Virus record (IMG/VR): IMGVR_UViG_3300022753_001683
Strand: one strand, 5' to 3'
From: an uncultured virus (IMG/VR IMGVR_UViG_3300022753_001683)
Taxonomy: Duplodnaviria > Heunggongvirae > Uroviricota > Caudoviricetes
Length of the DNA stretch: 56,690 nucleotides
The notes beneath the pieces were generated by a model that saw only the letters and a program-made list of their open reading frames with translations, searched no databases and had not been told where the DNA came from. Positions 1 to 36,265 of the stretch are shown piece after piece (the stretch's first letter is position 1; each line of letters starts with the position of its first letter). Both the position numbers and the translations under genes were made by a program.

Positions 1-2331
1 ACGCAATAAAATACTATTACCATATTGTAATGCTGCAGGCCAATTACCATAATTTAAATCATTATTCCAAACATAAGATAATTTCTTTACGCCACATTCG
101 TAAATTGGAATTGAGCGATATTGAATATATACAATACTTGGAATAGTTGCTTTTAAGCCATTCCAGCCTTCAAATAGATTTCGACTAAAAACACCAGATT
201 TAGTTTCATAAATTTTTTCTTTTGTAATAGGATCTAAGGCGTATGAACCATCTGCCTCTAACTTATATTCATCAATATCATAAGTATATAGTTCTTGTTT
301 TTCAGTTAGACCATATAATCCATATCCTACATAAGTCTGAGCATGAATATCTTGAATGGCTTCAAGATTATCTTCGTCTATATTTTCAACTGTTAAAATT
401 AAATATCCTTTTACCAAACTTAAAATATCTGGAGGATTAATATATCGTAATGGCGCGGTTGAATAAGTATCTAGTTCTAATTCATAAGTGCCAGTTTTAT
501 TAATGGCAAAATTATATTCTCCCCACTCAAAGCTCATACCATATGTGCTTGCTTTATTTATTGTATTTGTAGGATCTAAATCATAAATAAATTCAATCTT
601 GCGACATCCAGCACCTTCTGTTAAATCATATTCAGAAAATTCTTTTGAATTTTTCATTACTCTTGCAAGATCGCTTAAAGAAATTGTTTTTTTCATATCA
701 ATATGAACGATTTCGTCTTGAGCATTTAATAAAGAATAATTCGCAAGTGTACTAATATTAAATTTATCTACCTCTGATGCAGTACAAGAAAAGCTATGTA
801 ACATTCTACTTATGGTATCATTAGGAGTCAGACTAACGTTGGTTAATCGAACAATATAACTACCTTCTTGTGGAGATTTAAATAATTTAATCTTACCATT
901 ATTTAGCCATTCTAAAACGGCTAACTTAAATTTCCGCTCATAAGTGAAATTTTCGTCTGTAAGGGCAGTACCAGGTTCAATGAATGCACTGCGGATAAGA
1001 GTCTTATCTTCTTTAGTTCCAAACCATTCAAGGTCATCGCCAGTAAGAATCCAACTTTTATCAAGATCAGTTTTTTTCATAAATAATTGATCATTATCCA
1101 TATGATATGAAATTAAACCATTAATTGGAAACTCTTTATAATTTAAAATACCATTTCGTAAAATAAAAGGATATTGTCTACCAAGCGTAGTTTTTTTAGT
1201 TTCAGATAAAACTGACTTAAAAGAAGAAATTTTTGGATTAAAACGAATACGCAATTGTTTGTCACCATCATACAGAAAAGCATCTTCAAATACTGGAATT
1301 GTTAAATTAGCAGTAGATACTCTCTTAGAATAAATATTGCGTGAATTTACTTTTTGCAAAGAATACATATACTTTGCACCAGATTCAATAGCATAATCAA
1401 TATACTGATAACTACGAGTTTTTGATAATGCCATATTAATAGGAAGTTCTGCAATCGTTTCCCAAAGTCGATTTTCGCTCTAAAAGTCTTGTCTACAAAT
1501 AACAAAATTACCAATTAGAGGATATTCTTCTATTTTATTTTCTATTAAATATTTTGATTCAGGATAAATATGTAGAATTACACGAGCATTTTCATTATCT
1601 ACCTCTGTAGCTAAATATACATTTAATGTACTAATAGTGACTGTGGTTTGGGTAATTTCATAATTAACAGTATTTACTACTAATCCATTATTAGTAATAA
1701 TGCTGTACTATACTCGATAAATTTCGCCTTCTGTTAAATTAAATGTTAAAATACATTCATCTGAAGAAGCATCTAAATCGGTATCAGTTTGAGTATTATG
1801 AATTAACCATCCAGTATTTTGTAATTCTGCACCTTCACTATTAGAAAAAATAAAACGATATTGATATACTTTTTCTGATTCATCCTCATTCTGATAAGTG
1901 CCAATAAAAGATGTGTGTGAAATTGCAGTAATTGATTGCATATTTAAACCAGCAATTTCTACGATTGGCTTTGATGTATATTTTACAATAGCAACAGTAG
2001 AATAATATCCATCATTACCTGCTTGATCAACATATGCTAATTGAACTTTATAAAAATTACCTACAACAAGTTTTGCCACAATGTCCTCTGTCAAGTCATA
2101 AATTACAGAACGATTTTGGGCGTCATCTCCATATTTTTGAGAGAAAAGATTTGCAATAACAATATCTGTAGATGTTGTTTTTAAGCGAAGTCGCATTCCC
2201 TTAACTGCGGCGTTACTTACTGTAACATTCATAGAAAAAGGGACCTCTAATGAGGTCCCCGTGTTCGTAGTATAAAATGAGGGAATGGTGCCCGCTATAT
2301 TTGGTGGATATAAGCGGTTAATTGCGGCCAT
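1..2331 (-). CDS. Tail-associated structural protein (>=777 aa, runs off window), TAG-recoded
   Basis: ATG at 2331; the frame stays open to position 1 except for in-frame TAGs at 1708-1710 and 1480-1482. Lies downstream of the tape measure and large tail gene. Confidence 0.75.
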
Positions 2332-2333
2332 TC

Positions 2334-2720
2334 TTACTCCTCCTCAATAAGCATTTCCAAAGCAAGTAATTGTTTGGGGGTAAATTCCATATTTTCAATA
2401 AGTGCAAGAGGAATCTTACGAAGCTCAAGATCTGCAGTAAAATCATTTAGATCTTGACGAGCTTTACGACATTCTTCTTCCTTGCCTTCTTGAATAGCAA
2501 AAACGCCAGGAGCATTCTGAACAAATTCTTGCTTTTCAGCATCAAACTTCAAATATTCAAGAGCAAACTTGCGCTCTTGGTCAATATAAAACTCTTCTTC
2601 TTTCTTAAGCGCAGTAAGATTCTTTGCAATAATCATACCAAGCTTAAAAGGAACTTTAGAATCTTGAAGTTCTTCAAGACCTCGCATAAGAGTATCAATT
2701 TGAGTATAATTAAGTGTCAT
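2334..2720 (-). CDS. Hypothetical 128-aa protein, possible tail fibre chaperone
   Basis: AGGAG RBS, ATG..TAA, no TAG; small acidic helical protein between two tail genes. Function inferred from position only. Confidence 0.7.
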   Translation of the reverse strand: MTLNYTQIDTLMRGLEELQDSKVPFKLGMIIAKNLTALKKEEEFYIDQERKFALEYLKFDAEKQEFVQNAPGVFAIQEGKEEECRKARQDLNDFTADLELRKIPLALIENMEFTPKQLLALEMLIEEE

Positions 2721-2745
2721 AATCCTTTTTCTCCTTTATATATGA

Positions 2746-5700
2746 TTAATAGTAAGATTCCCATCCTGAAGAGGGAGTTGATTCCTAAGCAGGAAAGAAT
2801 GTACTAGCAGTATAACTTGATGGCGAATATGAATGAGAGGCTGGGGTATATGAATGTGATGAAGCTGTATAATTACAAGTTCCATCTGCATTTTTGCTAT
2901 GTGAAGAAGCTTTATAATAATGGCTTGCTGCCGTATAACTATGTGACTCTTGAGTATATGAAGAAGCAGTATATTGAGTGTCTGCTTCACATTGAGCAAA
3001 ACCCGCACTATAACCAGCTTTATATGCCGCCGCGATTTGGTCCATATGATATTTCGTGGCGGCAATATTAAAAGAATCGGATACTGTTGCCCCCGCGATA
3101 GTTAAAGAATAAACAATAGATCCGCCCTCTGCACTCATTGTAAAACCGCCCTCACCAAAAATTTCAGGCTCATCTGTTAAGTCAACCTATTTTCCTGCGA
3201 TTGTCAAAGAGCCAGTTAATTTTCCACTGCTTGTACCCATAGTCCAAGCCCCATCTTCAAAAATGGGTTGTCCAGCATCTTCTCCCATAGAAGTATCAGC
3301 ACCAACTGTACCAATCTATACGGAAGCTTTTAATTTACCTTCTGAAATTTCATAATTTAATACGTGTCCATGCTCCGCTAAAGCAAGAGCGGTACCTTCA
3401 CCGACAGTTGCGCCAGGAGTATTACCATTGCCGTTAAAACTCTCCTGCAACATTTTTCCATAAATACTCTATAATTCAATGGAAATAATCGCAGAGCCAT
3501 CTCCTCCAGCAGGGTCAACACGTAAATTTGCTTGACCAACAGCCTTAGCTAAAGCATTTTTAGCTTTCTTTAAAGCTTCAATTGCTTTATTCATTGCCGC
3601 AGCAGCTAAGTTGTTAGCAGCAACAATTTTTGGATAAACTTCTTCACAAAGAATTCTATTTACCCAAGCTTGAGTTGCAACCAATGAAGGAGTAGGTGTT
3701 CTTGATTCATTATTATCATCAAGCATAAAAATTACTCCTCCATAAATGGAGCCATCAACATCAAGATTTTTAGTAAATCTAGCAGATTCACCATAAATAT
3801 TCCACTAATAAAGATAACCTAAATCGGCTCCACGAGGAACAATTGTAACATTGCTGCCAATAGATTCTCCGCCAGAACCAAGATAGACATTAAATCCCAT
3901 ACCTTTAGCATCATGATACACAGCAAATAAACCCGCTCCACCAAGCTGTAAAGTTTCATCTGATTGCGCATCTGTTAATTCTACTGAAGTGTGGAATGTA
4001 CCAGTAAAATTAGTTAACCAAACCAAACCATCACTGTCTGGAGGAGTTACAATATCTGAGTCATCTTGAGAAAAATCTGGGAAACCACTTAAATCAAAAG
4101 GAATAATTGTTCCTTCTGCGGCATAATTATCATCTTTACTACCTTTTGTAAATTCAGTGGTTCGTTTATATTCTTCACCCATTTCATATGCACGTGGCAT
4201 AATGAAATTAGTATTTGTATCTTCTTTATAAGTCAAACCTTGTAAATGAATTGCTGCAAGATATAAATTACCTTCAACCAACTCTTCTGTTACTGCAATA
4301 TCTTCCGAAAGATCAGTAAAAACACCCTGACTTTCAGTCGAAATACCACAATAAATAGAAGCAGTTTCTCCATCAATTTGAACTTGACCTTTAGAGAAAT
4401 AAGCACTACCATTATTGCCACTGATAAAGCTTTTTGGAATTGGGAATGGATCTTCTCCTGTTGCTTTTTCTAAACCAAAACCAATATCACCTGTAGTAAA
4501 ATTGATTAACATATTATAATATGTTGGTTCAGCAATTAACTCAATACCTTCATCTTCAGTAGATAAACCCATCCAACCATATCGGCCACTAATAATCATT
4601 TTACCTTTCATAAAGGCAATAAATGAATCATGACCATTTAAGTTAATCCAGTCACCATTATGCTCGCCATCTCCTTGATCTCTAAAACCAGAAGGCATTC
4701 CATTTTCATCAGTAAAATCATCATAAAATTTACGATAACCTTGAGCTTGGCCTCCACCAAAATTTCTATCGGTTGCATAAATTTCATAATCATTAATATA
4801 CCAATTACCAATGGTTGCATATTTGGTGTATAGATAACCATCAGATCTAATACCTGTCTAAATAACATTATCTTCATTTGCAAAAGATGCAGTAAAGAAA
4901 TTCTCTGGAACAGGTAAAACTTCAGTGGTTCCATCTTTATATTCTTTGGTATAAGAAGTAACTTCTTCTCCATTTAAAGTATATGTAGGATTTGGAATAA
5001 AAGAACCATTTGACAAGTTCTTTTCTGGATTTCCTAAAAATATTCTACCAAAAATATTCTTCTATGTCAAGCCATAGTCACTAATAACCCATGGATAATC
5101 TTTACCGATACGACCATATCTAGCAAAAATACCACCAGTTGTAACTACGCCATAATTTGGGTCTACTAAGAAATAATCATGATCTTCATCATTCATAAAT
5201 TCATCTACCCATAGTAGTTCTTCATGATGACTCCAATCTTGCATCCAACTTAATGTTTTATCCGCCAATTCATCGCAAAATGTTGAAATACGTCTTGGTG
5301 TCTATGTATATAAGAAAAATTGTGAAATACTTTGATTACCAATAGCATCCCATGCTTGATTACTAATTACATAACCACCATTTTCATCTTCTGTCAGATA
5401 ATCCAATAAACGACGAGGATTTAAATTAATATAACAAGTCTAAGTTGAATTACTAATTAAAGCGTTTCGTCCATCAAAATGGATACGTCCTTCACCAGAT
5501 GGACCAATAAAACCAGTGCCATCAGTTTTAAATCCAAAAGACTGTTGTCCTGCATTGAATCCGTATAGGCCAGGAGTATCTAATGATTCATCGCCTTTTT
5601 CATGCCAGTCACCCATCATAACACCGGTAAAACGATTGCGCTGATCTTTTGTGCCTGCTGCAATCATTTTTGCAATAATCGCACTGTTCTCATAATCAAG

Positions 5701-8700
5701 AGATAGACTCTAACCATCCCACTCATTAACAAGAGAAGAAGGATAAAGGTTCTGCGCAAATGCGATACCCTGCGCGACTGTTGTGGTACCATCCATAAAA
5801 TATATATAAGTAAAATACTCATCTGTTAATAAATCTTCTGTCCATTGTTGTGCATAAGCCGAAGGATCTGCTACATGAGTATTTAATTGTTGCGCGGAAA
5901 AACCTAACGCATAAGAAGTTTGATTTGCTTTACTTACAGAAGTTCCATTTGGTAAAGTAAATACTGGATATTCAGCCTCTTTTTCAATTAAGCGTAATAC
6001 TTTTGTTTGATTGATCTACCATGTTGGATAAATCAATTCATTCATATAATCATATGTTTCGCCGGTTTCTTCAGAAGTATCAGATCCAGTAATAATTTTT
6101 TGTACTTCAAATACATTTGATGCATAAATTGGTGCTTGACCGTCAGATCTAAATTCTACACGATCTGGACACACAATATCATGCGTTTGCATATATTGAG
6201 CACTGTTACTTACTAAAATACCTTTTCGGACTGTAATATCATATTCTGCCGCACCAGATACCGTAACCTCAACAACAAAAGGATAAGGTTGTGTAATGCG
6301 GCCACGGATAACATTGCCAATAAAATCTTTATAATTTAGATGGTCTCTATCATCTTTTGGTTTATATGCAGTACCATAATATTTCCAAGTGAATTCGCAC
6401 TTTGCTCTTTCATCCAATGGTAATAATTGACCTTTACGATCATATACTAAACAGTAGATTTCAAATTCACTTGCGGTATCAACATAATAATTGCCAGCAG
6501 GTTCACTAATGGTAATAACAGGAGTATATTCACAACCAAAAGCTCCTGCTCGTCCAAAAATTAGTTCTTTCTTAATAGAAAAAGAACCCATACCATCAAT
6601 ATCAATTGTAGCACTAATTTCATTGTCATTATATCGCACATTATGAATAGCATCAATATAAAAATAGCGAGTTGCTTTTTTATCTAATTCAAATAAATGA
6701 TCTGAACGATGATTCCAATATGCAATATCTCGTGCGTTATCATCAAGCATTCCCCATGCTCTAATCATAGTAAAACTTTCTGGGAATTGCCAAGTAATAT
6801 TAAAATTCGGTTTATTACCATCTCGATCAGTGTACTCGCTTAAACGAACATAAGCGGCATCTTTGTCTGCATATACGTAATCTGAAGCAAGATTTCTACG
6901 ATCCTCTTCAACTTTGATCCAAGGTTCAATATAGTATTGCACATCTGAGAATAAAATATTATCATCATTAGCTAATACATTATTATTTTCATTATATACA
7001 AAGAAATTACCAACAGTGTCATCGGGAACAAGAGTTTCAGATTCTCTTGGCGCTAATCTATGAGTATCAGTTAAAAGTTCCATTTTACCTGTTGTAGTTG
7101 TAAAGAAATAACCTTTACCAGTAGGTAATTTTTCTGAACAGGAACCAACCAAGTTTCCACGAGAATCATATACGTCATAGCCAGATGGTTTCAATAACGC
7201 ACAACGTAATACAACTTTATCATTGCGCGCCAAATTGGCAATATCGCTCTCAATCGTTGTGTTATAATTCTAAAAAATAAATACATTACTTGTAGTATAT
7301 GTATTATTAAAATGAATTACAACCTTGTAGCGCTCTTTTGCTTTATTTATATCGGGAGTAACAACAAAATTAATTGGAGTATTTTCATCATATTCTACAT
7401 CAGCATCTGTTCCAATAGGGCGCCAATAATTACCACCGAAACGATGAGATGGAATTTCTGAATTATACTCGGGATGCTCTGGCGCCCATTCAGGATCATA
7501 TCTATACCAATATGTTTTTGCTTCTAATTCTTCTAATCTTGAATATGTATCAATTAGTTCAAGAGTGTTATCTACTTTATGAACCCATGCGGCATAAAGA
7601 GTACGATCAGGTTTACGCACTGCCTCATTCTCAGGGTCTGCGCCATATGTAACTACATCATATGTATATAATGTAATTGTTTCCTCTTGCATTTCCTCAA
7701 CAGAAAGTCCAAGCAAACAATGTAAATTATTAAAAATAATATTTTTTAACTCTGCACTTCGACCAGTGGCTTCTCCAAACTAAACATAGATTTCGTTAAT
7801 ACGAATCTTTTTTTCTTCTTCTGAAAGACTTGTATCATCTTCTACGGCTTTAATCTAAGCCATAAAATCTTCTTTAATAGTTTCTATGTCTTGAGATCCC
7901 CAAGGGATTGGATTACCATATTCATCAATAAATTTATGATCTTGCCAAAACCATACGTCAATACTATCAATAGAATTGGTAAATTTAGAGATGTCCACAA
8001 CGATTTGTTGTGTTGAGGCTAAAGTATAAGCATATGGATTACCGTACATATTATTGTTAGTAAAGTAATATTCTTGTGTTAAAGTTTCAATAGCACCAGA
8101 AGTTTTATCTTCAGTGCCTTGACCTCTTACACAAATACGTAATCCATATTCACCAGATTGAGGTCTAAAAGTATGTAGAAGTGTAGTAACATCAACTTCT
8201 AAACCCAATTTTGTGGCACAAATAGGACGTTTTTCAATGTTTTCCCAATGCCATACATGATCTTCGGATATTGGGAATGTTTCATTCGCAACATCCATAA
8301 TAAGCGTTTGTTCTTCTCCATGATAAGGACAATTAGCCCAATAACCAACTTCCTACATTGGCGTATTATATGATAAATTATATAATCCCACAAAATCATC
8401 AAAAGGAAGTTTGAGATTATATATGCTCTATTCATCTTCAGTATTAATTTTTAAACCAATAATAAATTTTTGAAGATTAAAATCACCATTTGGGATTTGT
8501 ACATAAACTTGCTGACCTGCACTATATACTTCTCCCTATTTAGCATAAGCATCAAAAACTGCGTCTTGGCTTTTTACTTTATAGACACCAGTGCGAGCAC
8601 CTTTATCATCAAGATAAACCTCAATGATTTTACACTCTTTGGTAATATCAAAATTTTGCTTTGATACGACTCCAGTTACAATTGTATAAATCGCATCAAA

Positions 8701-8739
8701 TAAATCGTTTTGCAAATTACCATTTTTCTATTCTGCCAT
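2746..8739 (-). CDS. Large tail/baseplate/receptor-binding protein (~1997 aa), TAG-recoded
   Basis: AAGGAG RBS, ATG at 8739. Track ORFs 7855-8298, 7270-7716, 6016-7233, 5440-5667, 5062-5268, 3805-4698, 3469-3726 and 2785-3138 share one frame and are separated only by TAG (18 counted). First TAA at 2746-2748. Directly follows the tape measure gene. Confidence 0.8.
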
Positions 8740-8859: not shown

Positions 8860-11800
8860 TTAGCGTTTTGAACCAATGTACTGAGCCGCGCGATTAATAA
8901 GATTATCAAAAGCATCTTGGATTTCATTACTATCTTGTACGTTCGGGAATTCTGCGGTAATATGAACTTGTTGTTGCAATTCAGTTTCCTTGGTGGTTTG
9001 GGTAGTTTCTGCATGTAAATTATACATATTAGCTCTTGAAGCTGCGGTTGCCAAATTAATATATTCATCCATCATAGTTAATGTGGCTTGATCAAGTTTA
9101 TTTACTACTTTAACTGTATCAAGCAATTTTTGTGTATCATTTTGATTTAATACTAATTCCGGTCTACTCTTAGTGCCATCAACCCAAGCGGGGCCAGTAT
9201 AATCAGCGAGGCCACCAGTGGCATATTTCTTGCCAGTTTTATCTTTAATTAGATCACCAAGCTTATTGCCAACAATAGCTCCTGCTACGCTAGTGACACC
9301 AGATCCAATGATCGCACCAACTGTGCCACCAACTTTAGAACCTACGCCTCCACCAACAACTCCACCAACAACTGCGCCTAGAACGGCACCAATATTTAAT
9401 CCAGAAGATTTATCTTGTGTACCGGTTCCACCAGTGCCGCCAGTTTTACCACCTGTATCTCCAGTTTTATCATTGTTTTTAGTGGTGGTGGTATCTTTTT
9501 TGGTCGTAGTTGTAGTAGTTTTAGTGGTAGTTGTTGTAGTACTGCCAACACTCGCGCCGGCCAATTTTGCCTAGGCCTAAATAACTTTCTAAATTTCTAA
9601 ATACATTGATTCATAAGTACCAATAACACTATTTAATTTAGAAATATAATTATCCCAAGCTGTTGTAGTAGTATGAATTTGACTTACCTCTTGACGCAGT
9701 GAATCTGTCATTTTTACAGTTTCATTTTTTGCATCTTCTGTTACTTTATCATAAGTATTTACAGATTCGACCATACTACCATAACTAGTATTTGTTAATA
9801 TAGTTACTTCTGCAATTTTAGTTGCATAATCTGACATGGCCTGTTTAATACGATCATAAGCGGTTTCCATTTCATCTCGATAATTATCAGTATCATTAAT
9901 CATTTCACCAATAATTTCAGCAACAGTACCTTTTGTTCTATCTGTAATTTCTTCAACTGCAATACCATAATGATCAGCAATTAATTCATTGGTTGTCATT
10001 GTATTTTCACTAACAATATTATATTGCTCTTGTAAATAACGAGAGCGTTCATAATAATGATCTAAAATCTCATTGATTCTTTGTTGTTTTTGTTCTTCTG
10101 TTAAAGTTTCATCCATAGCAATTTCTTTAATAGCTTCAAGCGTGTCTTGGCGTAATTGTAAAGTTTGATTATAAATATCTTGTTCGTATTCCCAATTGGT
10201 ATCAGCCATTTGCTGAAGTACATCTTCATATTCTTGCTGGGCTTGATTAATAGCATCTTCATCAGCGGTATATTGATATACCATGTTGCCTTCGCTATCA
10301 CGAGTTAAGCGTACAGTACTCTTAGCGTTTTGAGCCTCTTCAAGAGCAATCTACTTAAGAAGAAGTTCATATTTAAGATTCATCATTTCAATTTCATATT
10401 CGCTTAATTCTTTTAATTCACTTTGAGCATTAATTTCATCTTGTAATGCTTTTAATTGCTTTTTATGTACACTAGAAGTTGTGTCGTTGATTGACTGTTG
10501 GATATTACGATTTAACTTACTAATTTCATATAGTTCACGCTGAGAAGAAACATATTGCTCCATTTCTTCCATGTAGAAACCATATTCCTCAGTGAGCCAA
10601 GCAAGATCATTACCCACACCAACCATTGATTCTTCAAGATCTTTCATAATATCTTCGATTGTAGTATCGTACATATCTTTTAAGGCTTGAAGAGTTTCTT
10701 CAGTCTTAGATAGAATATTTGCTTGTACTTCATTCATTGTCTCTTGCAATGCCTCATATTGAATTCGTTCTGTTTCAGTTAATCCTTCCGCAGAGTTCAT
10801 GCGCGCAAGATAATATTGCTCTTCTTCTTTAAGTACATTAAGATAGGACATTTGAGATTCAAGAGAAGCCATATTATAATCATATTGCTTTTCATAGAAG
10901 AATAACAAATCTTCAAATGTTTGTCCTTTACCCATAAGCTGAAGAATAGACATATAAGAGCCCATAGCTTCAGAAGCAGCATCAATTTTTGCAGTATGCT
11001 TGTCAAGTTCTTCACTAGCAAGTTCAAGAGTCTTACCATAAAGTTCTTCAATTGCTTTTTTAGCTTCTTGAATTGCCTCAAGATTATCAAGAATTTGAGA
11101 TTGAATATCCTGTAGACCTGCAACGTAATCAGCTTGATTAAGATCTCCCGCCGCGAATGCAGCTTCAAGTTCTTGACGAGCTGTGGCAAGATAACTTAAA
11201 TTCTATTCTGCGATTTGTCCTTGACGAATATAATTATCCATAAGAAGATCTTGTTTTTCAAGAACTTCATCATATTTATCATTAATATAATCAAGATAAT
11301 CTTTTTCAGCTTCATTAATTTCAACTTTGTATTCGACTTTATATTGAATCTTTTCAAGAGTCTTTTCAGAAATTTGATTCTGCAATTCAAGAATTTCATT
11401 TTGTTTGTCACCAATAAGGTTTAAAGTTTCTTGATATTGATCAATCCATTCCAAGGCTTCTTCAAACCATTCGTCCATTTGCTCTTTTTCTTCTTCCATA
11501 TTTTCTTGAGCAGAAGCATCAGCAGCGTTGTATTTATCAATAAATGCATTGTATTTAGCTAAAATAGAATCCATTAAAGCATCATAATTAGAAATATTCC
11601 CTTCGCCATCAAAAGTAGCACCAAGAGAAGCAACCCTCTATTTGTCAACTGCTAACCATTCTTGGGCCTATCTAATATACTCTTCTTGTAAGCCAATTTC
11701 TTGTTCAATTAAAGAAATTTCTGCTTCTAAATTTTTTAAATAAGATTCTCCATAAACACGCTTTTTAACTTTATCTACTTTTTCTAATGCATCCGCCATA

Positions 11801-22195: not shown

Positions 22196-22208
22196 AGTCA
22201 ATTACTCC

Positions 22209-25489: not shown

Positions 25490-25772
25490 CCAATAAAGAG
25501 TTAGCTAATTCAGTTAATAAAGAAATAGAACTAAATACAGCTACTCTATATGTCATAAAATCTGTGGTCTGCGGCAAACCTTCTAATTTCGATAAAAGAA
25601 TTAAAAGATTCAATTGATCGCCAAACATTGCCTATAGACCATACAATTCATTCAAAACAGAGCCTAATTGCTTTTGCCAATCCTCATTATTTTCTCGCAT
25701 TGGTAGCAATTTCCAAACTTGGTTTATTAAACGTCTTAAATCTTTATTGAGAGTTTCATTAGAAAAAATCAT
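25482..25772 (-). CDS. Hypothetical 96-aa protein, TAG-recoded
   Basis: ATG overlaps the upstream TGA (ATGA), one in-frame TAG at codon 47, and the TAA overlaps the next gene start. Confidence 0.7.
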
Positions 25773-26407: not shown

Positions 26408-26410
26408 TGA

Positions 26411-27001: not shown

Positions 27002-27022
27002 ATTTTAAAACTCCTTTTACTC

Positions 27023-27050
27023 AAAAATGGGGAGGGAGTGATCCCTCCCC
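27023..27050 (-). terminator. Intrinsic terminator after the major capsid gene
   Basis: GGGGAGGGA-N4-TCCCTCCCC stem followed on the minus strand by ATTTTT. Confidence 0.75.
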
Positions 27051-27065
27051 GATATATTTATTTAA

Positions 27066-28112
27066 TTAACCAGAAACCTTGTCACCATCATAAACCTTGG
27101 TATCCAAGGAGTTGTTTACATAAACGCAAATGTCAGGAGTCATAACGACGCCAACGCCAACCTTCTTGTAAACCTGGATTTCACGGCTACGATCCTTGTT
27201 AACATACTCGTCAACAATGGTAGCACCTTCCATAACAACCTTAGCTGGCTTTACAGAACCAGGTAGGATGTAGCAATGGGAAGGATCAATAACCTTCTCG
27301 GTATGAGTAGCATCAGTGAAACCTTGTGGAAGAATAACAACAGGATGATTCTTATAAGAAGCAAAGCGACCATTATTCCAGATAACATCCTTCATGTTGT
27401 CAGACCACATATTAGCATTCTCAGGACGAATGGTGCTAGCAAACTCCTCAGTGCAGTAGATGGTAGGAGTACCATAAGCTGCAGCAATAGAAATAAGACG
27501 ATCGAATGCCTTCTCGTCGAAAGCAGAAGCCTCAACCTTATTCATGGTTGGAAGCTGATTCAAACCAGTCTTAAGAGCCTGACCGATCTCCCAGTAAATA
27601 AGCTCGTCCATGCCGTCCATAACGATCTTGGTAACTTCAGCAAAATCAGCACGACCATCAAGGAACTCCTCAAGACCGATCTGAGCTGCGCCACCAATAG
27701 CGCTGGTCTGCATTTCGATAGCAGTATCCTTACCAAGCTTAAAGACTTCGTAGATACCTGCAAGTCCGACCTTGGTAATAAACTGCTTAGCACGCTGACG
27801 ATCATGGTGACGATGGAAGATAGCCTTATCGCCCTGACCAATGGTCTTGATCTCAGCAAACTGACCATAGTTTTCCATAACCTTCTTAGGAAGTACTTCA
27901 TCCATAGTCTGCTCAATTAGAGCAAAAATCAAATTCTTATTCTCACGATACTGAGCGAAAGTGCCAGCATACTCGTTGAGTTCACGGCGAAGAGTCTCAT
28001 TAAGAGCATCATAAGTCAAATTCTCGCCGTTAAAGCTGTAAGCAACCGGAGCGGAGCGATCAGCTTTAGCAGTAGCCTTCATAAGCTTCAAAAGTTCATT
28101 TCTTTCTAACAT
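27066..28112 (-). CDS. Major capsid protein (348 aa)
   Basis: Size, position after the scaffold and decoration genes, strong codon bias, own terminator, no TAG; SPbeta YonB-like position. Confidence 0.75.
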   Translation of the reverse strand: MLERNELLKLMKATAKADRSAPVAYSFNGENLTYDALNETLRRELNEYAGTFAQYRENKNLIFALIEQTMDEVLPKKVMENYGQFAEIKTIGQGDKAIFHRHHDRQRAKQFITKVGLAGIYEVFKLGKDTAIEMQTSAIGGAAQIGLEEFLDGRADFAEVTKIVMDGMDELIYWEIGQALKTGLNQLPTMNKVEASAFDEKAFDRLISIAAAYGTPTIYCTEEFASTIRPENANMWSDNMKDVIWNNGRFASYKNHPVVILPQGFTDATHTEKVIDPSHCYILPGSVKPAKVVMEGATIVDEYVNKDRSREIQVYKKVGVGVVMTPDICVYVNNSLDTKVYDGDKVSG

Positions 28113-28135
28113 AGCTAGTTTCTCTCCTTTCCGAA

Positions 28136-28840
28136 TTACTGAATACGCATGACCTTAACGGCCTTCTGCATATCGCCTAAATTGTATACCTTAACAACCT
28201 GCCACAACATGCCGGACTCAGCCTCGGTCTTAGCCAAGTAGCCCTTTGCATTAGGAGCAAGAATGTCACCAAGAGCAAGAGTTTCCTCTGCAACACAGTT
28301 AGTAGTAAAGATGTCGCCCTCATGAGTCTTGAATAGACGAGGAGTCATCATACCCTGAACATCAGAAAGTAGCTGAGGCTGATTTAGATTCTCAATCTCA
28401 TAGGACTGACCAATCTTCAAATGCATACGACCAAAGTCATCAGCAGCACCCTCATCAGTATAACCAGCAGCATAAACATCGGTCTCAGCACCGATAGTCT
28501 TCATCTGGTTGTCAACATCGCCCTTAGCGCCAACTGGGCTATAAACATAACCATTGTAGTCACGAGCGATCATAGCGAAGTCCTGGTCGGTCTCCCATGG
28601 AGCATAGACCTTAACTTCATTGAAGATAAGCATCCATTCGCCCTTACCTTCAAAATCAACAGTACCATTTACATAGTTGTACTTAGCAAACTGACCATTC
28701 TCTAGGATCTTGATATCCTTATGAGCAGGCAACTGAGCATAAATTTCACCAGTGCGCTGTGCGGAGAGATGGTTAGGCTCAACCTGACCGAAGCCATAAG
28801 TTACATACTTAGCTTCAGGAGATAATCTTTTAAAAGCCAT
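28136..28840 (-). CDS. Putative capsid decoration/cement protein (234 aa)
   Basis: AAGGAGG RBS, motif GFGQVEPNHLSAQRTGEIYAQLP, sits between scaffold and capsid, high-expression codon style. Confidence 0.55.
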   Translation of the reverse strand: MAFKRLSPEAKYVTYGFGQVEPNHLSAQRTGEIYAQLPAHKDIKILENGQFAKYNYVNGTVDFEGKGEWMLIFNEVKVYAPWETDQDFAMIARDYNGYVYSPVGAKGDVDNQMKTIGAETDVYAAGYTDEGAADDFGRMHLKIGQSYEIENLNQPQLLSDVQGMMTPRLFKTHEGDIFTTNCVAEETLALGDILAPNAKGYLAKTEAESGMLWQVVKVYNLGDMQKAVKVMRIQ

Positions 28841-28866
28841 TTTTTAGCTCCTCCTTTGATATCTAA

Positions 28867-30276
28867 TTACATAGTTTTGGCAGTCTCACGCACGGCCTTA
28901 ATCCAGGCTGGTGCATTGTCATTGCCATCGTCGTTGTCACCAAGGGAATAAACCATTGGATCCTGTTTTTCGGGTTCTTGTTTATCGTTATCAAGGCTGA
29001 AATTAACCTTGTTACGAACACAAATAATAGAAAGCTTGGCTTCAATATCATCCAAGGAATAGTTGTCAATATTAGCAACAACATCAGCCTTGTCAGTTTC
29101 AGTCAACATATAGAAGCCATCAATCATAGCCTGCTTTTCCTTACGATCAGCAGTGGCCTTAAACTCACGAAGTGGAGCGATTTCCTTCTCAAGAGAAGCA
29201 CACTTTACTTCGAGAGCAGCATAATTCTTGGCGAGCTCAACATATTCTGGAATCTCTTCAAGATTATACTTCTTTTCTTTATTGCAAGAGCATTCAGACG
29301 CAGGTTTTCCGCACTTCGGGCACTTCTTGTCATCCTCGTCCTCTTCTTCATCATCGGACTTGGCGAACTTCTTCTTACCCTTCTTCTTCTTGTCCTCGTC
29401 TTCGTCTTCATCCTCCTCAGACTCTTCAGATTCCTTCTTATCCTCTGAATCATCTTCGTCCTTCTTTGGAGGGAATGGAGGCTTTTTCTCTTCTTTCTTT
29501 TCCTCTTCCTCGTCGGGCTTCTTCTTGAACTCAGTCTCTTCGGCTGAATTCTCGATATTCTGCTCCTCCTCAGTCATAGGGGTCTTAATATCCTCATTCA
29601 TTTGAGTTTTTCCTCCTTCTTGTAAAGCTGTTTGTAATTCTTTAATCATGGAGAACAATTGTTCCTTGAACTCTCCATCAATAGAGAACTGCGAAGCGAT
29701 ACCCGCTCCCTCAAAGCAAGGTTCGACGTTCTCTCCAAGAATACACAATTTTTGGATAATTGCTTCATTGATAATGAAAAACTTAGGCATTCCATTATCG
29801 TCTGTTGTCCACTTCCCTTTTGTAAGTTTATTATGAAGTTCCATGGACTGATTATTCCCCTTCTCAATGATACGCTTAGCCTCTGGGTACACATCATCCC
29901 AAATATAACCTTCAGTCATAAGGTACTCATGCTCAACACCATCATCTAAGAATTTCTGGAACCAGACTTTTGCTCCCAAATCAACGAAACCATATGGTCG
30001 AGTGGTATCAATAATATCAAACTTACCATTTGAAACATCAATCATACGATTATGCTCTTCAAAATCACCAGTAGCCTCATTAAAAAAACCAACAATAGGG
30101 CAACCTGGCAATGACTTCGCCATATCAGTGGCAACAGCCTTGGTAATTACACTGTGGTTTCTATTGGGATCTTCTCCCACATAACACACTTTAATCTGAC
30201 ACTTAGAGATTAAAGGGTTAACAGGAGTGAAGTTAAGCAATTCAACAGTAGCTTCAACTGGAACACTAATATGCAT
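28867..30276 (-). CDS. Prohead protease/scaffold protein (469 aa)
   Basis: N-terminal protease-like domain (NRNHSVI..GCPIVG..QSMEL..LCILG..VEPCF), then an E/K/D-rich low-complexity linker with a small CPKC..C.C motif and a coiled-coil scaffold; follows the portal. Confidence 0.7.
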   Translation of the reverse strand: MHISVPVEATVELLNFTPVNPLISKCQIKVCYVGEDPNRNHSVITKAVATDMAKSLPGCPIVGFFNEATGDFEEHNRMIDVSNGKFDIIDTTRPYGFVDLGAKVWFQKFLDDGVEHEYLMTEGYIWDDVYPEAKRIIEKGNNQSMELHNKLTKGKWTTDDNGMPKFFIINEAIIQKLCILGENVEPCFEGAGIASQFSIDGEFKEQLFSMIKELQTALQEGGKTQMNEDIKTPMTEEEQNIENSAEETEFKKKPDEEEEKKEEKKPPFPPKKDEDDSEDKKESEESEEDEDEDEDKKKKGKKKFAKSDDEEEDEDDKKCPKCGKPASECSCNKEKKYNLEEIPEYVELAKNYAALEVKCASLEKEIAPLREFKATADRKEKQAMIDGFYMLTETDKADVVANIDNYSLDDIEAKLSIICVRNKVNFSLDNDKQEPEKQDPMVYSLGDNDDGNDNAPAWIKAVRETAKTM

Positions 30277-30291: not shown

Positions 30292-31899
30292 TTAATTAGC
30301 AGATTCCTTATTCTAAATAGTTTTTTCAGATTTCTGTCCATCTGGTTTTTCAGGACGACCGCCTTTATTTTCAGAGGAAGAACCTGTCTAAGAACTTTGA
30401 GCTTTCTTCTAAGCCTTCTATCCTAAGATGTCCTCACCATTCATTGTAGAACTCATAATCGGTGGGATCATAATTTCATACAAGTGCAATACTTCATTTT
30501 CAAAGTGTGCAGTAGCAATAATAGCACTTTGAGAATGACCCATCGCAATCTGCGGTAGCATCTTGGAGTAACCAATCTGCACTTGTTCCTTATACATCTT
30601 CGCAAGCTCGATGTAGTTGTAGACTGTCGTCTCCAACATATACACTCTAAAGTTATACTTCTTCTTACCGGGGAACTTGTGACGAACGATCTTGTTTAAC
30701 ATATTACCAAACTGTAGAATCAAATTGCGCATTGAAGCCTCATCATTTAAGATAGACTTTTCAAGAGCAATATTACCATCTGTATTAAACAAGTTCTAAG
30801 AAACACCAAATTGGTTATACAAAGTTCTTTCAACCTTTTCCAAATCATCGGTAGAGGTTGTAGTATTTTTATCCGCCAAGTCCGCAACAGAGGTATCCGC
30901 AAATGTAGTCATAACGTCTACACCAACCGCACGCTTCAACATCTGAACCGCATTGTTGTGAATATCTTTTGCTTCATCAACGTCAAAAATCAAATCACCA
31001 TTCTTATCAAGAGGAAGTTTCTGAATTACAATTTTCAACAATTTCTGCATGGTCTTGCGACGGTCTAAATCCTGCGCTGCATCCAAATCCAAAATCGCGG
31101 GAATCGCATTTGCAAGAATTGGATAGTCACTACCATTCAGATTTAATTTAATCGCACAAGCGGGATCAAGTAAATACCACCCAGCTTGAGAGCCAGATTC
31201 ATCTTTAAGTTTGCCTTTCTTGTATAAAACATAACCTTTGGCAAACTCTTCTGGGAACATCTTTAAAATTCTAAGTCGCTGTTCAATAGTTGGGAACTTA
31301 TCATCAAAGAACTTCATATTGAACTCAACGGCCGGCGAATCGCCAACCATATAACGACTGCGACAATAAGCAACTGGCAATTCCTGCAAGGTCATGCCAT
31401 TAGTGGTATCTACAATATAACCATAGTAGCAACCATTCTTAATAACCTAAAGGGCTACATTGCCGCACATGTATTTAATATTTGAGTTATCTAAATAATT
31501 AAGAACCTTAGAAAACTCACTTAGAATTTTTTCTTCCTTGATAGAATCATCTTCAACATATGGAACAACATACCAGTCATATCTATACAAAAATGCAAAA
31601 TATTTGCATAGACGTTCATAGATACCACTTACCTCATAGAAGTAATTTGATATTTCACGCAAGGTGTTATAATCCTTAGTAGCTAATGCGCGTAAAACCG
31701 CATTCTTGTCACCATATGTACGATTGGTCTTTTTTAAAGCACCCAAATCTAAAATAGCATCATCAAGGGTTTGTAGACCAATACGAATCTTGCTAAAATC
31801 AAGTGGCTCATTATTTTCCGGATCAATATAATCAATATCCCTGCGAGGCGGAGTTAATGCAAAACCTTTAGCACGGATTTCATCCTATCTTCTTCGCAA
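30292..31899 (-). CDS. Portal protein (535 aa), TAG-recoded
   Basis: GGAGGT RBS, TTG at 31899, TAGs at 31885, 31447, 30796, 30418, 30409, 30388 and 30313, TAA at 30292. Joins three track ORFs; C-terminal GGRP motif; lies between terminase and protease. Confidence 0.8.
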
Positions 31900-31912: not shown

Positions 31913-32269
31913 TTAATAGCCAGCCTTTGTCATAATATAATCATAAGTAATAAGATTCTCTTCTGTATACGGAATTTCAACTAATGGGATTTCCTTTAAT
32001 GCACAAAAACGACGTTTCTTGTTATCATTGAACTACTGTTGATAAAAACCTTTTGTTCCACCAAATTTACTTGATGGTTCATAATGTTGTTTACCTTGAT
32101 ATTCAATAAGGAAATCAATATTTCCATCATCGTCAAATACACAAAAGTCAAACCGCAAAGGACGACCATTCGGGCTATTTAAACCCTCAAATGATTGTTC
32201 CATTGTGAACCGCAATCCCGCCTCTTCCAGAATCTCTTGAATCTTGATTTCTCCACGAGACGCTCTCAT
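31913..32269 (-). CDS. PD-(D/E)XK (Vsr/DUF559-like) endonuclease, 118 aa, TAG-recoded
   Basis: S.GE..I...L, LRFDF, LIEYQG.QH; one TAG at 32033, after which the domain continues (FNDNKKRRFC..IPLVEIPY) to TAA. Confidence 0.75.
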
Positions 32270-32281: not shown

Positions 32282-34024
32282 TTAGTTCATAAACATCATT
32301 TCAGAAATTCTGCCTTTGCGTTTACGCTTTTTACTATCTTCCTCTTGTTTAATATAGTACAAGCCATATTCAAAAGCAGAGAACTTATCTTTCTTAATTG
32401 ACTTATTAGCTTGCTTTAAAATGATGTTAACACCTTCGTTTTCTTCACGAAGATTCATCATCTCTTCCTTCAATATGGAAGTTAGAGTAAACGGTTTAAG
32501 ATATTCCGCCCTCTCTTCAGGTTTCATATCTTGTCCACGCTTAGTTCCCATTAACTTAACTTTTGCCACACGTTCATCAATCAGCATCTTTACTTTACCA
32601 GAAGATAACTGAGTTTGCGCATTCGCGTGAGCTTCAGTGTTAATAGGTGCATTGGCCTTAATAATATACATAGCATCAAACTCACAGGCATCAGTGCGGA
32701 ACTTCTTATAATAATTTTCTTCATCGTTCTCAACACCAAAGTCAGGATAAGTTTCATTAGTATCCGGATCAATTTGAGTTTTTACCATATAGTCAACAAG
32801 ACCAATACCAAGACCATTACCGTCGATAACAATACGACGAGCCTTGTATTTATAGAACAACTTCTTCAATGCAATAGCTTGATCTTCAAAGTGTTCATCA
32901 TGTAAAGTATAAATATTTACCAAAGTCTTTAATGATACACCCGCAGTCTGTGGTGTTACCTTAAATACACAAACTACAGTATCGCAACCTTTACGACCTA
33001 CGTCAACCGCAAGTACATAATACGCAGACTTCATAGATCTACCAGAATACTCGTATTCAGGCTGCTTTAAGATTCTATTACGATCAAATTGCTCAGCACG
33101 GAAGAACGCATCTTCAATAGTGCCAGACCATTTAGATTCATACTCACGGTCAAAAGAGGACTCATTAAATGTACCGTCCAATTTCAAGTCGCGCACAAAG
33201 TTCTTATCAAGTAATTTCATAAGAACAGGAATTCTCCAAGTACCACCCATAATACAAAACTTCTCCGGTTGCGTAATCTGTCCAACAAGCATTTGAATCA
33301 ACTTATCATAAGCGAAAGTATTCTTCCAGCCCGCAGTTGTAACAAAGATCTGACTTTTATTCAGAACCTCTTGATCATCAGAAGTACCATCCGGCAATCT
33401 GCGAGAAACGTTCATAACTGGAATAATAACTTCGTTTAGGATAGTTCCATCTACGCCAACGCACTCCTCAACAAGTCCGCCATGTCGGCGCTTACCTCTT
33501 GATTTTTCGCTAGCACCCAAGTTATCAATATAAGAACCACTTCGGAAAATATATTTACAATAGTCTTTACCTTCTAATGTTTTACCACGGCCCCAGTCAA
33601 TCTCTTTTGCGAAGCCCGGCACAAGAGTACAGATTTCCTGGACTTTTTCTTTCAAAATACCAGAAGCCTGTTCCTTACCACCAGAAGTAACAAATAGTTT
33701 AGATCCCGCATATAGTACTGCACGAGTCATCAAAATCAAAACCGCAAGGAATGATTTTGAATAAGCACGCGGAAAGACCGCATACACGTATTTGTAACGC
33801 ATAGCGGCCCGCAAAAATACTCGTTGATAAAAGAATAAGTTAAGCGTTTCCTTTGGAGGATTTGGCTGCCATTTACCTGCCATGAAGTCAACAAACATGT
33901 CAGGGTATTCGCGCCAATAGGCAATATACTAACGTGCGACCGGAATAACGGCCCGCACACGCTCTTCAGATAAACCAATTTTCTATCGGTCGTTTGAGAG
34001 GTTTAATAAGTCTTGTAAAGCCAT
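32282..34024 (-). CDS. terL: Terminase large subunit (580 aa), TAG-recoded
   Basis: AGGAGG RBS, ATG at 34024, TAGs at codons 14 and 32. Walker A variant PRAYSKS, Walker B GLVEE, coupling motif VTTAG, nuclease motifs VLAVDVG and KKDKFSA. Confidence 0.9.
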
Positions 34025-34025
34025 A

Positions 34026-35198
34026 TTATTCCTCCTTTAACATTTCCATCATCGTTAAGGCATCATCTTCAGCCTCTTGTTCTAAGAATTCATAGTGTTC
34101 GGCAAAGTCATCATCTTTCAATTCATCAAGAGAATCCATATCCATAATTTCATCTTCATCATCAATATCTTCATCTTCTTCGCGTTCGGCTTCGCGCTGC
34201 AATGCCTTAACCGCAGATTCGATAAGATTACCAAGATTCATCTCTTCAGTAACAAGAGTGTTAGTGTAGCCACGCAAGTCCGCAAGAGTTTCATCAACTC
34301 TATCCTTCGGCTTGTCGGTATAGAAACGAGGAATAAATCCCTCTTCTTTTTCACATAATAAAACCAGTTCAGAAATTGAGTTAACAAACTCGCCAGCCTC
34401 AGCCTTATTCTGAACCGCAGTAAATTTAGCGGATTTCATCAAAGCGTCATAAACCTTAGACATCTTTTGGAAACCTTCGATGTCGCCCAAGTCAATCAGT
34501 TGATGAGCCTTGATTGAAGTTTTACAAATAAGCTTTAAATAGTCTTCATGAGATGGAGTCTGAATATCGAACGATTGCATCATCTCTTGATAATACTTCT
34601 CTAACTGAACCCATTCATACGGTTTGTAGGTCTTGCCCCACTTAATCGCCAAGTAAGTTTTATCTTCTTCAGTTAGATCATCTTCGAATCCCACTGGCTC
34701 AAAGGCATCAATCGGAGCAGGCTCCTCTCGTGTTGCTTCTAGTTCAGCGGGTCTTTCAGGTGTCCTGTTTGCGGCGAGAGCTTCCTCAATCTCTTCTCCA
34801 GTATAGCCTTGTCGAGCCATAACGTCTCGCTTCCGCGCATCCATTTCAGCCTTAATCTTTTCAGTATCTTCCCATGAATAATTTTTGTATTGATTCAATT
34901 TCATTTTGGAAAGGTAACGACCCAAGATGGTCATACCAGTAACCTTGGTGCGGTCCTTGCCATAACGTTCAAGTAGAGTATTCCATTCCTCTTCAATATA
35001 AGGAACATTGATCTCTTCCAAAATCCATAAATAAGTTTTCGGATTCCAATTGTCTACATGTCGAGTGATGCATTTCTTACATTCAGGTAATTTACCATCG
35101 TCGGGGTATCTATCCAACCGATTAGATGTGTAAAATTGATCAGTATCCATCGTTCGACCGCAGACCTTACAATAATAAGTTTTATTTAAGTCTGCCAT
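34026..35198 (-). CDS. Zn-finger protein upstream of terL, possible terminase small subunit (390 aa)
   Basis: CKVC...CKKC at the N-terminus, acidic tail, abuts terL, no TAG. Confidence 0.5.
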   Translation of the reverse strand: MADLNKTYYCKVCGRTMDTDQFYTSNRLDRYPDDGKLPECKKCITRHVDNWNPKTYLWILEEINVPYIEEEWNTLLERYGKDRTKVTGMTILGRYLSKMKLNQYKNYSWEDTEKIKAEMDARKRDVMARQGYTGEEIEEALAANRTPERPAELEATREEPAPIDAFEPVGFEDDLTEEDKTYLAIKWGKTYKPYEWVQLEKYYQEMMQSFDIQTPSHEDYLKLICKTSIKAHQLIDLGDIEGFQKMSKVYDALMKSAKFTAVQNKAEAGEFVNSISELVLLCEKEEGFIPRFYTDKPKDRVDETLADLRGYTNTLVTEEMNLGNLIESAVKALQREAEREEDEDIDDEDEIMDMDSLDELKDDDFAEHYEFLEQEAEDDALTMMEMLKEE

Positions 35199-35203
35199 TC
35201 ACA

Positions 35204-36265
35204 TTACTCCTTTGCCTTCTTGTTCTTGGCATTCCGGCAACACTTACACAAAGAATACCATCCATCTCTTGAACCTTTGTTTATGGAAAAAAATCTTGAA
35301 TGGGCTAACTTAATTTGCCCACACCTAGTACATTTCTTCCACTTCCCATATTCTTTTTCAGTATAATACCAGGTCAGCCATTCATCTGTATAATAAGAGG
35401 CAATGAGCTTTGGAATTTTATTACGCCATAACGAAGAAATATATTCGAGCGAATGAGTGAAGCCGAATTCCTTTTCAATCATTTCCTTGATATCAACATT
35501 AGATTGCCCGTCAATTTTATATTCTACAATACGACGGTATAAAGGATAGCCGGCAAGTGAATTATCTACTAATCTATCAAAGTCTTCCATCATATACCAG
35601 GTATCACCCTCGAACCTGCCATAGCATCCTTCTTTTAGTTTAGAATAATTGCATAAAATAGTGCTAATAACAACGGGATTGATAAAGGACACACCTTCAT
35701 ACTGGATTTCTCCATTTTCATCTACCCATTCATCCCATGGGAGTTTAATATAGTGTCCGATATTTCTTGTAATATTTCGCGCAACAATTGGTTGGCGGTA
35801 GGCGTTTTTAATAAGATATTGATCCTTCCGCAATTCGATAATAGTTGATTTGATAATATAGGCTGCTCGCCCAGTCGCAGTTTTAGACAGCTTTTCCCAA
35901 TATGCTATGCTGTCGCGCAACTGACGTAATGGCTCAATTTCTTCTAAATCTTTTTTCGTAATTGTTACTTTCGGCTAAAATATTACATTCTTATCGTTCG
36001 TTACTAAATTATATATACCATCTTCGCCATTCTCCAACTGGCCAACAAGACCCTCGAAAGATGTTTCTCGTTTATTGACAGTCGCCATACGGTTGTCGGT
36101 GAGAATCTTTCGCTCCTTCTTCTCTTGTTTCTCCATACAAAGAACCAAATAATCAGCAAGGATTTCCAGATATTGCTCGCTTGGGTCGGGAGTCTCTGTT
36201 AAAATCTATTTCACCAATTCATTTCGCTCTTGAGGAGATTCAATCGTATAATCTAGCTTGATTAT
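35204..36265 (-). CDS. Putative transcription regulator (sigma region-4-like HTH plus C-terminal Zn finger), ~353 aa, TAG-recoded, probable ATA start
   Basis: The frame of track ORF 35204-35920 extends to an AGGAGG RBS at ~36275-36280 through two TAGs. No ATG near the RBS; ATA at 36265 is at normal spacing. HTH-like GQSNVDIKEMIEKEFGFTHSLEYISSLW and CTRC...CKCC. Confidence 0.6.

Follow-up and report, generated by a model that had tools for sequence, protein, structure and literature searches.

The 56,690-nucleotide stretch analysed here (the window), which belongs to the uncultured virus of IMG/VR record IMGVR_UViG_3300022753_001683, carries the late operon of a phage on its minus strand at positions 1-36274, and the subject of this report is the codon TAG, which recurs in frame within that operon. 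The window corresponds to bases 99-56788, reverse strand, of a 112,783-bp virus contig that is 68% complete as estimated by CheckV. A second IMG/VR contig of 168,738 bp (G001; CheckV completeness 88%) spans the whole of this contig at positions 55193-167975 with 99.98% identity and 21 differences, and the two are therefore two assemblies of one phage. Matches to PHROG and Pfam families revealed a standard late operon, running from a gene annotated as a sigma factor through the large terminase, the portal and the head-region genes to the tape measure protein and large tail proteins; the phage is a large tailed one, and the window represents its structural half. When TAG is read through, the operon resolves into 20 tiling genes, whose main features are the following:

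35204..36274, minus strand: opening gene of the late block, 356 aa, 2 TAG; phrog_5767, annotated 'sigma factor'
34026..35198, minus strand: gene of 390 aa, 0 TAG; phrog_3314, a function-unknown PHROG
32282..34024, minus strand: large terminase (TerL), 580 aa, 2 TAG
31913..32269, minus strand: small gene, 118 aa, 1 TAG
30292..31899, minus strand: portal protein, 535 aa, 7 TAG; phrog_2739
26411..30276, minus strand: four head-region genes (28867-30276, 28136-28840, 27066-28112 and 26411-27001), 0 TAG; GC about 0.44
25769..26407, minus strand: small gene, 1 TAG
25482..25796, minus strand: small gene, 1 TAG
23783..24529, minus strand: gene of the virion block, 248 aa (747 nt), 11 TAG, the densest; phrog_4051
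22825..23757, minus strand: late gene, 0 TAG
20918..22201, minus strand: gene of 427 aa, 8 TAG; stop codon TGA
8860..20235, minus strand: tape measure protein (TMP), 3791 aa, 41 TAG (42 in the G001 copy)
2746..8739, minus strand: tail protein, 1997 aa, 18 TAG; without a family match
1..2331, minus strand: tail gene running off the window, N-terminal 777 aa of 1002, 2 TAG

The first of these genes could begin at a TTG at 36274 instead of at 36265. The TMP matches PF10145 at residues 190-397 and tape measure PHROGs at residues 11-531, and the complete 1002-aa tail gene, as found on G001, carries 4 TAG codons.

Over its 11,776 codons the operon contains 94 in-frame TAG codons, spread over 11 of the 20 genes, and not a single in-frame TAA or TGA. 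Nineteen genes have their stop codon within the window, and this codon is TAA in 17 and TGA in 2. Under genetic code 11 the operon is fragmented into many open reading frames (ORFs), the longest stop-to-stop frame being 548 aa. The share of the minus strand lying in stop-to-stop frames of at least 300 aa rose from 0.356 under code 11 to 0.855 when TAG was read as sense, as compared with 0.376 and 0.421 when TGA or TAA, respectively, was made sense instead, so that the frame-restoring effect is specific to TAG. Across the whole contig, counting both strands and frames of at least 200 aa, the corresponding values were 0.647 (code 11), 0.843 (TAG), 0.734 (TGA) and 0.797 (TAA). Annotation with table 11 thus cuts the portal, terminase, tape measure and tail genes into dozens of fragments, and phage proteins are therefore missed or mis-sized in databases; reading TAG as glutamine turns the late operon into a clean 20-gene set. 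The base following an in-frame TAG was A at 45% of the 94 sites, compared with 31% over all codons, and the base following the real stops was T in 14 of 19 genes; in E. coli, a purine after UAG favours suppression.

The sequence-only reading of this stretch had called 11 full-length genes by TAG read-through, with the TerL, portal, TMP and 1997-aa tail sizes and the TMP and tail TAG counts listed above and with every called gene ending in TAA or TGA, and all of this is borne out by the frames. The contexts on which it had based glutamine (IYFQ*G, LTVY*LYD and SEKTI*NKES) are likewise present. Its additional recoded gene at 50706-51299 was not upheld: the only TAG there is codon 4, which precedes an ATG at 51251 that opens a TAG-free ORF of 181 aa, and the gene therefore needs no recoding.

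The same TAG codons recur in independent assemblies. The 248-aa gene at 23783-24529, including all 11 of its TAG codons, is 100% identical in five IMG/VR contigs with different metagenome identifiers. In a word index the stretch was present in 20 of 24 runs among those listed, from 14 studies, with 7 of the runs that contain it possibly being the source itself. We compared contigs from four runs of four other studies (X8, X10 and X12, DNA; X17, an RNA library), a comparison of contigs that, X17 included, cannot show transcription. A 22.7-kb DNA contig from X10 covers the whole stretch with 8 differences, none of them in a TAG codon, and every TAG covered by the X8 and X12 contigs is unchanged. 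In the diverged X17 contigs the sole TAG change is at codon 116, where TAG is replaced by AAG. The in-frame TAGs are not sequencing errors.

Because the translations in protein databases may themselves have TAG set to glutamine, the residue that TAG replaces was tabulated from DNA loci. (Among protein-database portal homologues, 120 of the 6,089 passing, glutamine was the plurality residue at 6 of 7 TAG columns; this result was not relied on.) For the portal, 80 DNA loci yielded 56 distinct sequences, 32 of them with 1-13 TAG codons and 24 TAG-free, and in-frame TAA or TGA was never seen. At 69 usable TAG columns, glutamine made up 0.256 of the TAG-free cells, as compared with 0.047 over all columns, and it was the plurality residue in 19/69 of these columns versus 27/541 overall; glutamate, asparagine and lysine came next, and serine stood at 0.082 against a background of 0.068. 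The closest sequence with a sense codon had glutamine at 29 of 71 TAG columns (CAA in 24, CAG in 5), followed by glutamate (7) and by alanine, serine and lysine (5 each), and in portal pairs at least 75% identical a glutamine codon stood opposite TAG in 21/39 columns. Mean BLOSUM62 scores at TAG columns ranked glutamine first (1.19), ahead of glutamate (0.73), lysine (0.59), asparagine (0.26), serine (0.24), tyrosine (-1.48) and leucine (-1.87). At the seven TAG positions of the window portal, TAG-free relatives had a glutamine majority at four, a glutamine/lysine tie at one, glutamate at one and threonine at one.

Examining the 248-aa gene in orthologues from ten related genomes gave a result of the same kind. 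The gene carries 5-10 TAG codons in the five phages whose portals contain TAG and none in the five whose portals are TAG-free, and CAA or CAG stands in every one of the five TAG-free phages at 5 of the 11 window TAG columns. When 23 usable TAG columns were taken together, glutamine had a share of 0.48 against a background of 0.063, with BLOSUM62 scores of 2.40 for glutamine and 1.38 for glutamate. A direct interchange occurs within the phage itself: TMP codon 2850 (window 11686-11688) reads CAA in the window, whereas G001 has TAG there; the codon falls in a 54-nt patch of 9 differences between the two assemblies, mostly synonymous, with the look of a recombined or variant stretch. These combined results, all drawn from comparison of sequences, favour glutamine as the clear best reading of TAG. 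The sequence-only reading, which had held TAG to be a sense codon and most likely glutamine, had suggested that coding density be compared between the codes and that residues be tabulated at TAG columns, and both comparisons came out on its side.

Beyond the window, the late block of G001 (75.7-145.9 kb, plus strand) carries 113 in-frame TAG codons within 32 genes of at least 150 aa, which contain 517 CAA and 171 CAG codons and terminate in TAA (29) or TGA (3); the endolysin (SpoIID and PG-binding domains) has 3 TAG codons. Genes for replication and nucleotide metabolism that are identified by Pfam matches contain none, among them those for the DnaB-like helicase, Pol III alpha, NrdD/NrdG, dUTPase, guanylate kinase, UvrD-like helicase, gyrase B, FTHFS and SAM synthetase, and no confidently called gene uses TAG as its terminator. 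The opposite strand of the window adds the following feature:

36366..50000, plus strand: small-gene block in which TAG appears neither as a sense codon nor as a stop

The 25 plus-strand ORFs of the window (this block together with three genes at 51884-55224) stop at TGA (19) or TAA (6) and never at TAG. The TAG-free replication and opposite-strand genes are therefore read identically under both codes. Within the late operon, TAG-rich genes favour CAA (CAA:CAG = 162:17 in the TMP). Among the TAG-free late genes, CAG:CAA is 12:1 in 22825-23757, 4:1 in 26411-27001, 11:1 in 27066-28112 and 13:0 in 28136-28840, four genes that also have a higher GC, and the head gene 28867-30276 contains 6 CAA and 7 CAG. 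This CAG-preferring, TAG-free set points to an avoidance of TAG in highly expressed virion genes.

In agreement with the sequence-only reading, which had seen no suppressor tRNA in the window, ARAGORN and Rfam RF00005 searches of the window and its 112,783-bp contig found no tRNA, the contig being a 68%-complete fragment, which explains the missing suppressor. On G001, an array at 26.7-45.5 kb contains 33 tRNAs according to ARAGORN and 37 according to Rfam, and one of them, at 33636-33726, has the amber anticodon CUA (tRNA(CUA); 91 nt, 53.3 bits against RF00005). In E. coli, glutaminyl-tRNA synthetase recognizes a weak 1:72 pair, G2-C71, G3-C70, G73, G10 and U35. All six features are present in tRNA(CUA), which has an A1.C72 mismatch, as well as an encoded CCA end. 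Its acceptor pairs 2-6 (G2-C71 to A6-U67) are those of the phage tRNA-Gln(UUG), its D-arm is close to that of the phage tRNA-Gln(CUG), and its D-loop has the normal GG and its T-loop the sequence TTCGAAT. Position 73 is A in the Leu and Tyr tRNAs of this phage, unlike the G73 of tRNA(CUA). The class I body with a variable loop of 4-5 nt, as in tRNA-Gln, is replaced by one with an 18-nt insertion in the variable region, for which the best fold is a 3-bp stem.

Pairwise identities between tRNA(CUA) and the remaining 32 tRNAs did not single out an isotype, Leu, Ser, Pro, Thr, Ala and Gln each reaching 0.86-0.90. ARAGORN labels the gene 'Pyl', a label that reflects the CUA anticodon only. A tRNA-Pyl is compact, with a 3-nt variable loop, a small D-loop without GG and an atypical T-loop, and is accompanied by PylS. 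The 91-nt length, GG-containing D-loop, TTCGAAT T-loop and long variable region do not fit this identity, and a Pfam scan of 99 G001 ORFs found no PylS-like or other synthetase. In a search for a theta or hepatitis delta virus (HDV)-like ribozyme, or for a further Rfam family of any kind, next to tRNA(CUA), only tRNA reached the Rfam threshold, in a release (Rfam 15) that may lack theta ribozymes.

Among related genomes, tRNA(CUA) was present in 4/4 recoded relatives whose arrays were fetched and in 0/5 TAG-free relatives, such that tRNA(CUA) goes together with TAG in the portal in these nine relatives as well as in G001; the phage itself has the suppressor gene, and the occurrence of that gene in relatives follows their use of TAG. 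The relatives' genes measure 93 nt (G002), 95 nt (G003), 74 nt (G004) and 74-75 nt (two genes in G006). All six suppressors found in the four recoded relatives likewise have G73 and a 1:72 position that is U-A, wobble or mismatched. The extra arm is common to G001 and its two closest relatives, G002 and G003, which share the motif CCCTCTGA(A/C)GG, and in G003 it is predicted to form a 5-bp stem.

The array holds other unusual tRNA genes. Three Rfam tRNA matches at G001 44794-44908, 45203-45320 and 45327-45452 (L037 4794-5452, minus strand) contain insertions of 48-60 nt in the anticodon arm and are missed by plain ARAGORN; group I introns are longer than these inserts. The third has a Tyr-like body with A73, an extra arm and an insertion of 44-48 nt, with GGTCT repeated at the borders of the insert, and its excision could give a GUA or a CUA anticodon. 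Two genes for PD-(D/E)XK endonucleases lie inside the array, and 7-16 kb upstream of it, at 10353-19654 (L038), are an RNA ligase (PF09414), an AAA_33 kinase-like gene and three calcineurin-like phosphoesterases, genes that may work together in RNA or tRNA repair. Two relatives carry tRNAs with other stop anticodons: the TAG-free G011 has a 73-nt tRNA with the ochre-type anticodon UUA (L139 16974), and the TAG-recoded G002 has, beside its tRNA(CUA), a 72-nt tRNA with the opal-type anticodon UCA (L125 1750). The portals of both are without in-frame TAA or TGA.

Considering the two-gene DNA comparison, the CAA/TAG polymorphism, the retention of TAG across assemblies and the tRNA(CUA) of G001, we put at about 85% the probability that TAG in the late genes of this large gut phage stands for glutamine and is read by a phage-encoded suppressor tRNA(CUA). 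That the TAGs are in frame, conserved and real, and that their columns match glutamine, is shown by the comparisons above. According to this model, TAG would serve as a glutamine codon in the genes for packaging, head, tail and lysis, with TAA and TGA as the sole terminators, and would be decoded by the amber suppressor from the phage's array of 33-37 tRNA genes outside the window. Host enzymes would most likely charge this tRNA with glutamine, and, as the gene content suggests, the virion genes could not be completed until it had accumulated. We infer the glutamine charging, the temporal switch and a way round release factor 1 (RF1) of the host.

Several observations weigh against this model. 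The suppressor is situated outside the window, on another assembly, and its variable region of 18-20 nt is as in Ser, Leu or Tyr tRNAs and atypical for tRNA-Gln; a resemblance to the phage tRNA-Leu(UAG) is seen in its D and variable arms as well. Owing to these Leu/Ser/Tyr-like arms, its charging identity is not readable from sequence alone. A recoded relative, G005 (87% complete), has no tRNA on its contig. TAG also occurs in non-structural genes, namely RuvC (4), a ThiF-family gene (2) and a formate/nitrite transporter (1), falling inside the Pfam match for all four in RuvC, one of the two in ThiF and the one in the transporter, so that a restriction to late genes is approximate. At the residue level, 6 of the 11 window TAG columns of the 248-aa gene are variable among the TAG-free phages (D, S/T, K/Q/E, S/E/D, N/G/E/S and D/N), as are the 2-3 of 7 portal TAG columns that are not glutamine in TAG-free relatives. 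The sequence-only reading had proposed scanning the rest of the genome for the suppressor tRNA, a glutaminyl-tRNA synthetase or release factor 2 (RF2): the tRNA was found, as described above, and a release factor (PF00472) or Glu/Gln-tRNA synthetase (PF00749) was not found in G001, whether by a search for the family or by the Pfam scan of 99 ORFs, nor was RF2 or an RF1 antagonist seen, a set of absences that the 88% completeness of G001 keeps from being proof. A full-length TMP with 41-42 TAG codons would be reached in about 44% of attempts at a read-through of 0.98 per codon and in about 1% at 0.90, and such a number in one essential gene therefore calls for very high per-codon read-through; how 41 TAGs are read efficiently in one gene is not explained by the factors found so far. 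The gene sets a hard number on the suppression efficiency needed.

A sense codon for some residue other than glutamine would sit well with part of this evidence, though we find it quite improbable. In such a case TAG could specify glutamate, if the suppressor were charged by a non-discriminating glutamyl-tRNA synthetase without amidation, and glutamate is indeed the second-best residue at TAG columns. It could also specify serine, leucine or tyrosine, as the class-II-like extra arm, the 18-20-nt variable region and the tRNA-Leu(UAG)-like arms would allow, with the Tyr-like gene at G001 45327-45452 as a second candidate for a CUA anticodon after excision of its insert, or lysine/pyrrolysine. 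However, glutamine is 5- to 8-fold enriched at TAG columns, where serine is near background and tyrosine and leucine score negatively; five columns are invariantly glutamine in all five TAG-free relatives, and the CAA/TAG polymorphism points the same way. The G73 of tRNA(CUA) departs from the A73 of the phage Leu and Tyr tRNAs, and its GG-bearing D-loop, TTCGAAT T-loop and long variable region, with no PylS-like gene seen, speak against pyrrolysine.

The missing RF2, anti-RF1 factor and synthetase, and the near-complete suppression that 41 TAGs in one gene demand, would instead be accounted for if the host itself read TAG as glutamine or lacked RF1, with no code switch in infection. This we consider very improbable, since the phage has its own tRNA(CUA), co-occurring with TAG use among relatives, its replication and early-type genes avoid TAG, which is unexpected for an ordinary glutamine codon of the host, and close relatives differ in TAG use. 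We know of no bacterium in which TAG encodes glutamine. Hosts of such phages, moreover, use the standard code as described in the accessible text of two reports (bioRxiv 10.1101/2021.08.26.457843; PMC10607447). Least of all do the TAGs appear to be sequencing or assembly errors, or the marks of a decaying, non-functional element: apart from the broken frames under table 11 nothing speaks for this, and the recurrence of the same TAGs in five IMG/VR contigs and in runs of other studies, the exclusive occurrence of TAG, never TAA or TGA, over 11,776 codons and in the portals of 32 distinct relatives, and the alternation of TAG with glutamine codons in relatives leave it scarcely credible.

An extension of the glutamine model, which we offer tentatively and regard as rather doubtful, is that the phage clade uses a new type of glutamine suppressor, a 91-95-nt tRNA shared by three related phages that combines a Gln-like acceptor stem with a class-II-style extra arm, together with a shut-off of RF1. 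If so, the extra arm could mark the tRNA for a step particular to the phage, for instance its charging, its protection against host nucleases or its preferential use, and shut-off of host RF1 would also be needed given the 41-42 TAGs of the TMP and no RF2 in 88% of the genome. The extra arm of the suppressor and the 41 TAG codons in one 3,791-aa gene are the unusual details of this phage, and the tRNA is a concrete object for experiments on charging and orthogonality.

Such a combination has precedents among E. coli amber suppressors, which include supE, a tRNA-Gln with a CUA anticodon, and glutamine-mischarging mutants of the su+3 tRNA-Tyr, in which changes at 1:72 or 73 let a long-armed tRNA take glutamine. 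Like these, tRNA(CUA) has U35, G73, a weak or broken 1:72 pair, G2-C71 and G3-C70, by the identity rules as generally stated; supE and su+3 are laboratory mutants giving partial suppression, whereas here a natural phage gene would serve 94 codons in essential genes.

Recoding of TAG to glutamine in late genes is already known, as the sequence-only reading had stated, and the phage described here is a further example. It has been described, together with phage suppressor tRNAs, in crAss-like phages, Lak phages and six 'gemstone' clades, including Garnet, Amethyst, Agate and Topaz, in the accessible text of a preprint (bioRxiv 10.1101/2021.08.26.457843) that also sets out a model (Borges) in which early genes are readable under both codes and late genes await the suppressor; TAG recoding of late genes is also reported from metaproteomics (PMC9523058, as far as its available part goes). 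As described there, those phages share with ours in-frame TAG mostly in structural and lysis genes, a phage tRNA(CUA), replication genes largely compatible with the standard code, clades that mix recoded and standard-code members, and release factor and synthetase genes that are often absent. The nearest gemstone clade, compared by description only, is Agate (154 +/- 27 kb, cattle and pig, mixed codes). The extra arm is a feature of the suppressor here that goes unmentioned in the available preprint text: 'variable arm' has no occurrence in it, nor 'variable' in the available text of PMC10607447 and PMC10879173, and full-text searches brought up no suppressor tRNA with such an arm, although supplementary tables may list such tRNAs.

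Another parallel is phAss-1, of the proposed genus Phassvirus, a 136-kb siphophage-type genome from gut viromes with 36 tRNAs, tRNA-SUP-CTA genes, TAG in TerL, portal and TMP, no dedicated synthetase, a proposed Clostridia host and a relationship to Enterococcus phage EF1, according to the accessible text of PMC10607447. The large gut genome, the many tRNAs, the CUA suppressor, the TAGs in TerL, portal and TMP and the lack of a dedicated synthetase recur here. In contrast to the three suppressor genes of phAss-1 there is one clear gene here, and the genomes are larger (166-190 kb in related genomes with terminal repeats). Phassvirus members share 80-86% nucleotide identity (PMC10607447); the TerL of phAss-1 is 43.5% identical in protein sequence to that of the window over 96% of its length, a distance that places the two in different genera.

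On a quick tree of the 56 distinct portals, with TAG state judged by the portal alone, at least five changes of TAG state were required, four of them forced by well-supported branches, and none of 500 label shuffles came down to five changes. These changes echo the rapid code changes described for Agate phages in the available preprint text, and a clade that mixes recoded and standard-code phages offers a natural series for following stepwise capture of a stop codon. The window TerL is 43.5-47.7% identical to those of Enterococcus phages VRE9_4, H1 and EF1, Geobacillus virus E3, Alicyclobacillus phage KKP_3916 and phage Phass-1, and 62% identical to that of an unannotated human-faecal 'Bacteriophage sp.' record. 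Hosts of the TerL relatives are Enterococcus, Geobacillus and Bacillus, and the evidence from relatives points to Bacillota/Clostridia hosts. A database comparison of the phage FTHFS gave identities of 55-63% to many Clostridia and some others, with no close match and no host named.

The TAG-free opposite-strand block of the window differs in composition from the late operon. At 38000-50000, GC is 0.46-0.50 (late operon, about 0.35) and AT skew is +0.09 to +0.17; the block consists of small plus-strand genes, mostly without a family match and nearly all stopping at TGA, and the scarcity of stop codons leaves ORFs open on both strands. The possibility that TGA is a sense codon in this GC-rich block was rejected, the plus-strand ORFs being ordinary small genes of which 19/25 stop at TGA. 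A gene for an HNH/homing endonuclease (37087-37905, plus strand; phrog_559, E 6.5e-34) begins about 800 bases past the start, at 36274, of the oppositely oriented late operon, and a FolD-like tetrahydrofolate dehydrogenase/cyclohydrolase lies at 51884-52717. On G001, further metabolic genes are found at 5763-7424 (formate-tetrahydrofolate ligase), 25586-26818 (SAM synthetase) and 157344-158153 (DAHP synthase family). In addition, two adjoining late genes of 538 and 497 aa, with 1 and 3 TAG codons, respectively (G001 135315-138447), consist almost wholly of low-complexity repeats rich in Y, S, H, N, T and G, and are followed by radical-SAM genes.

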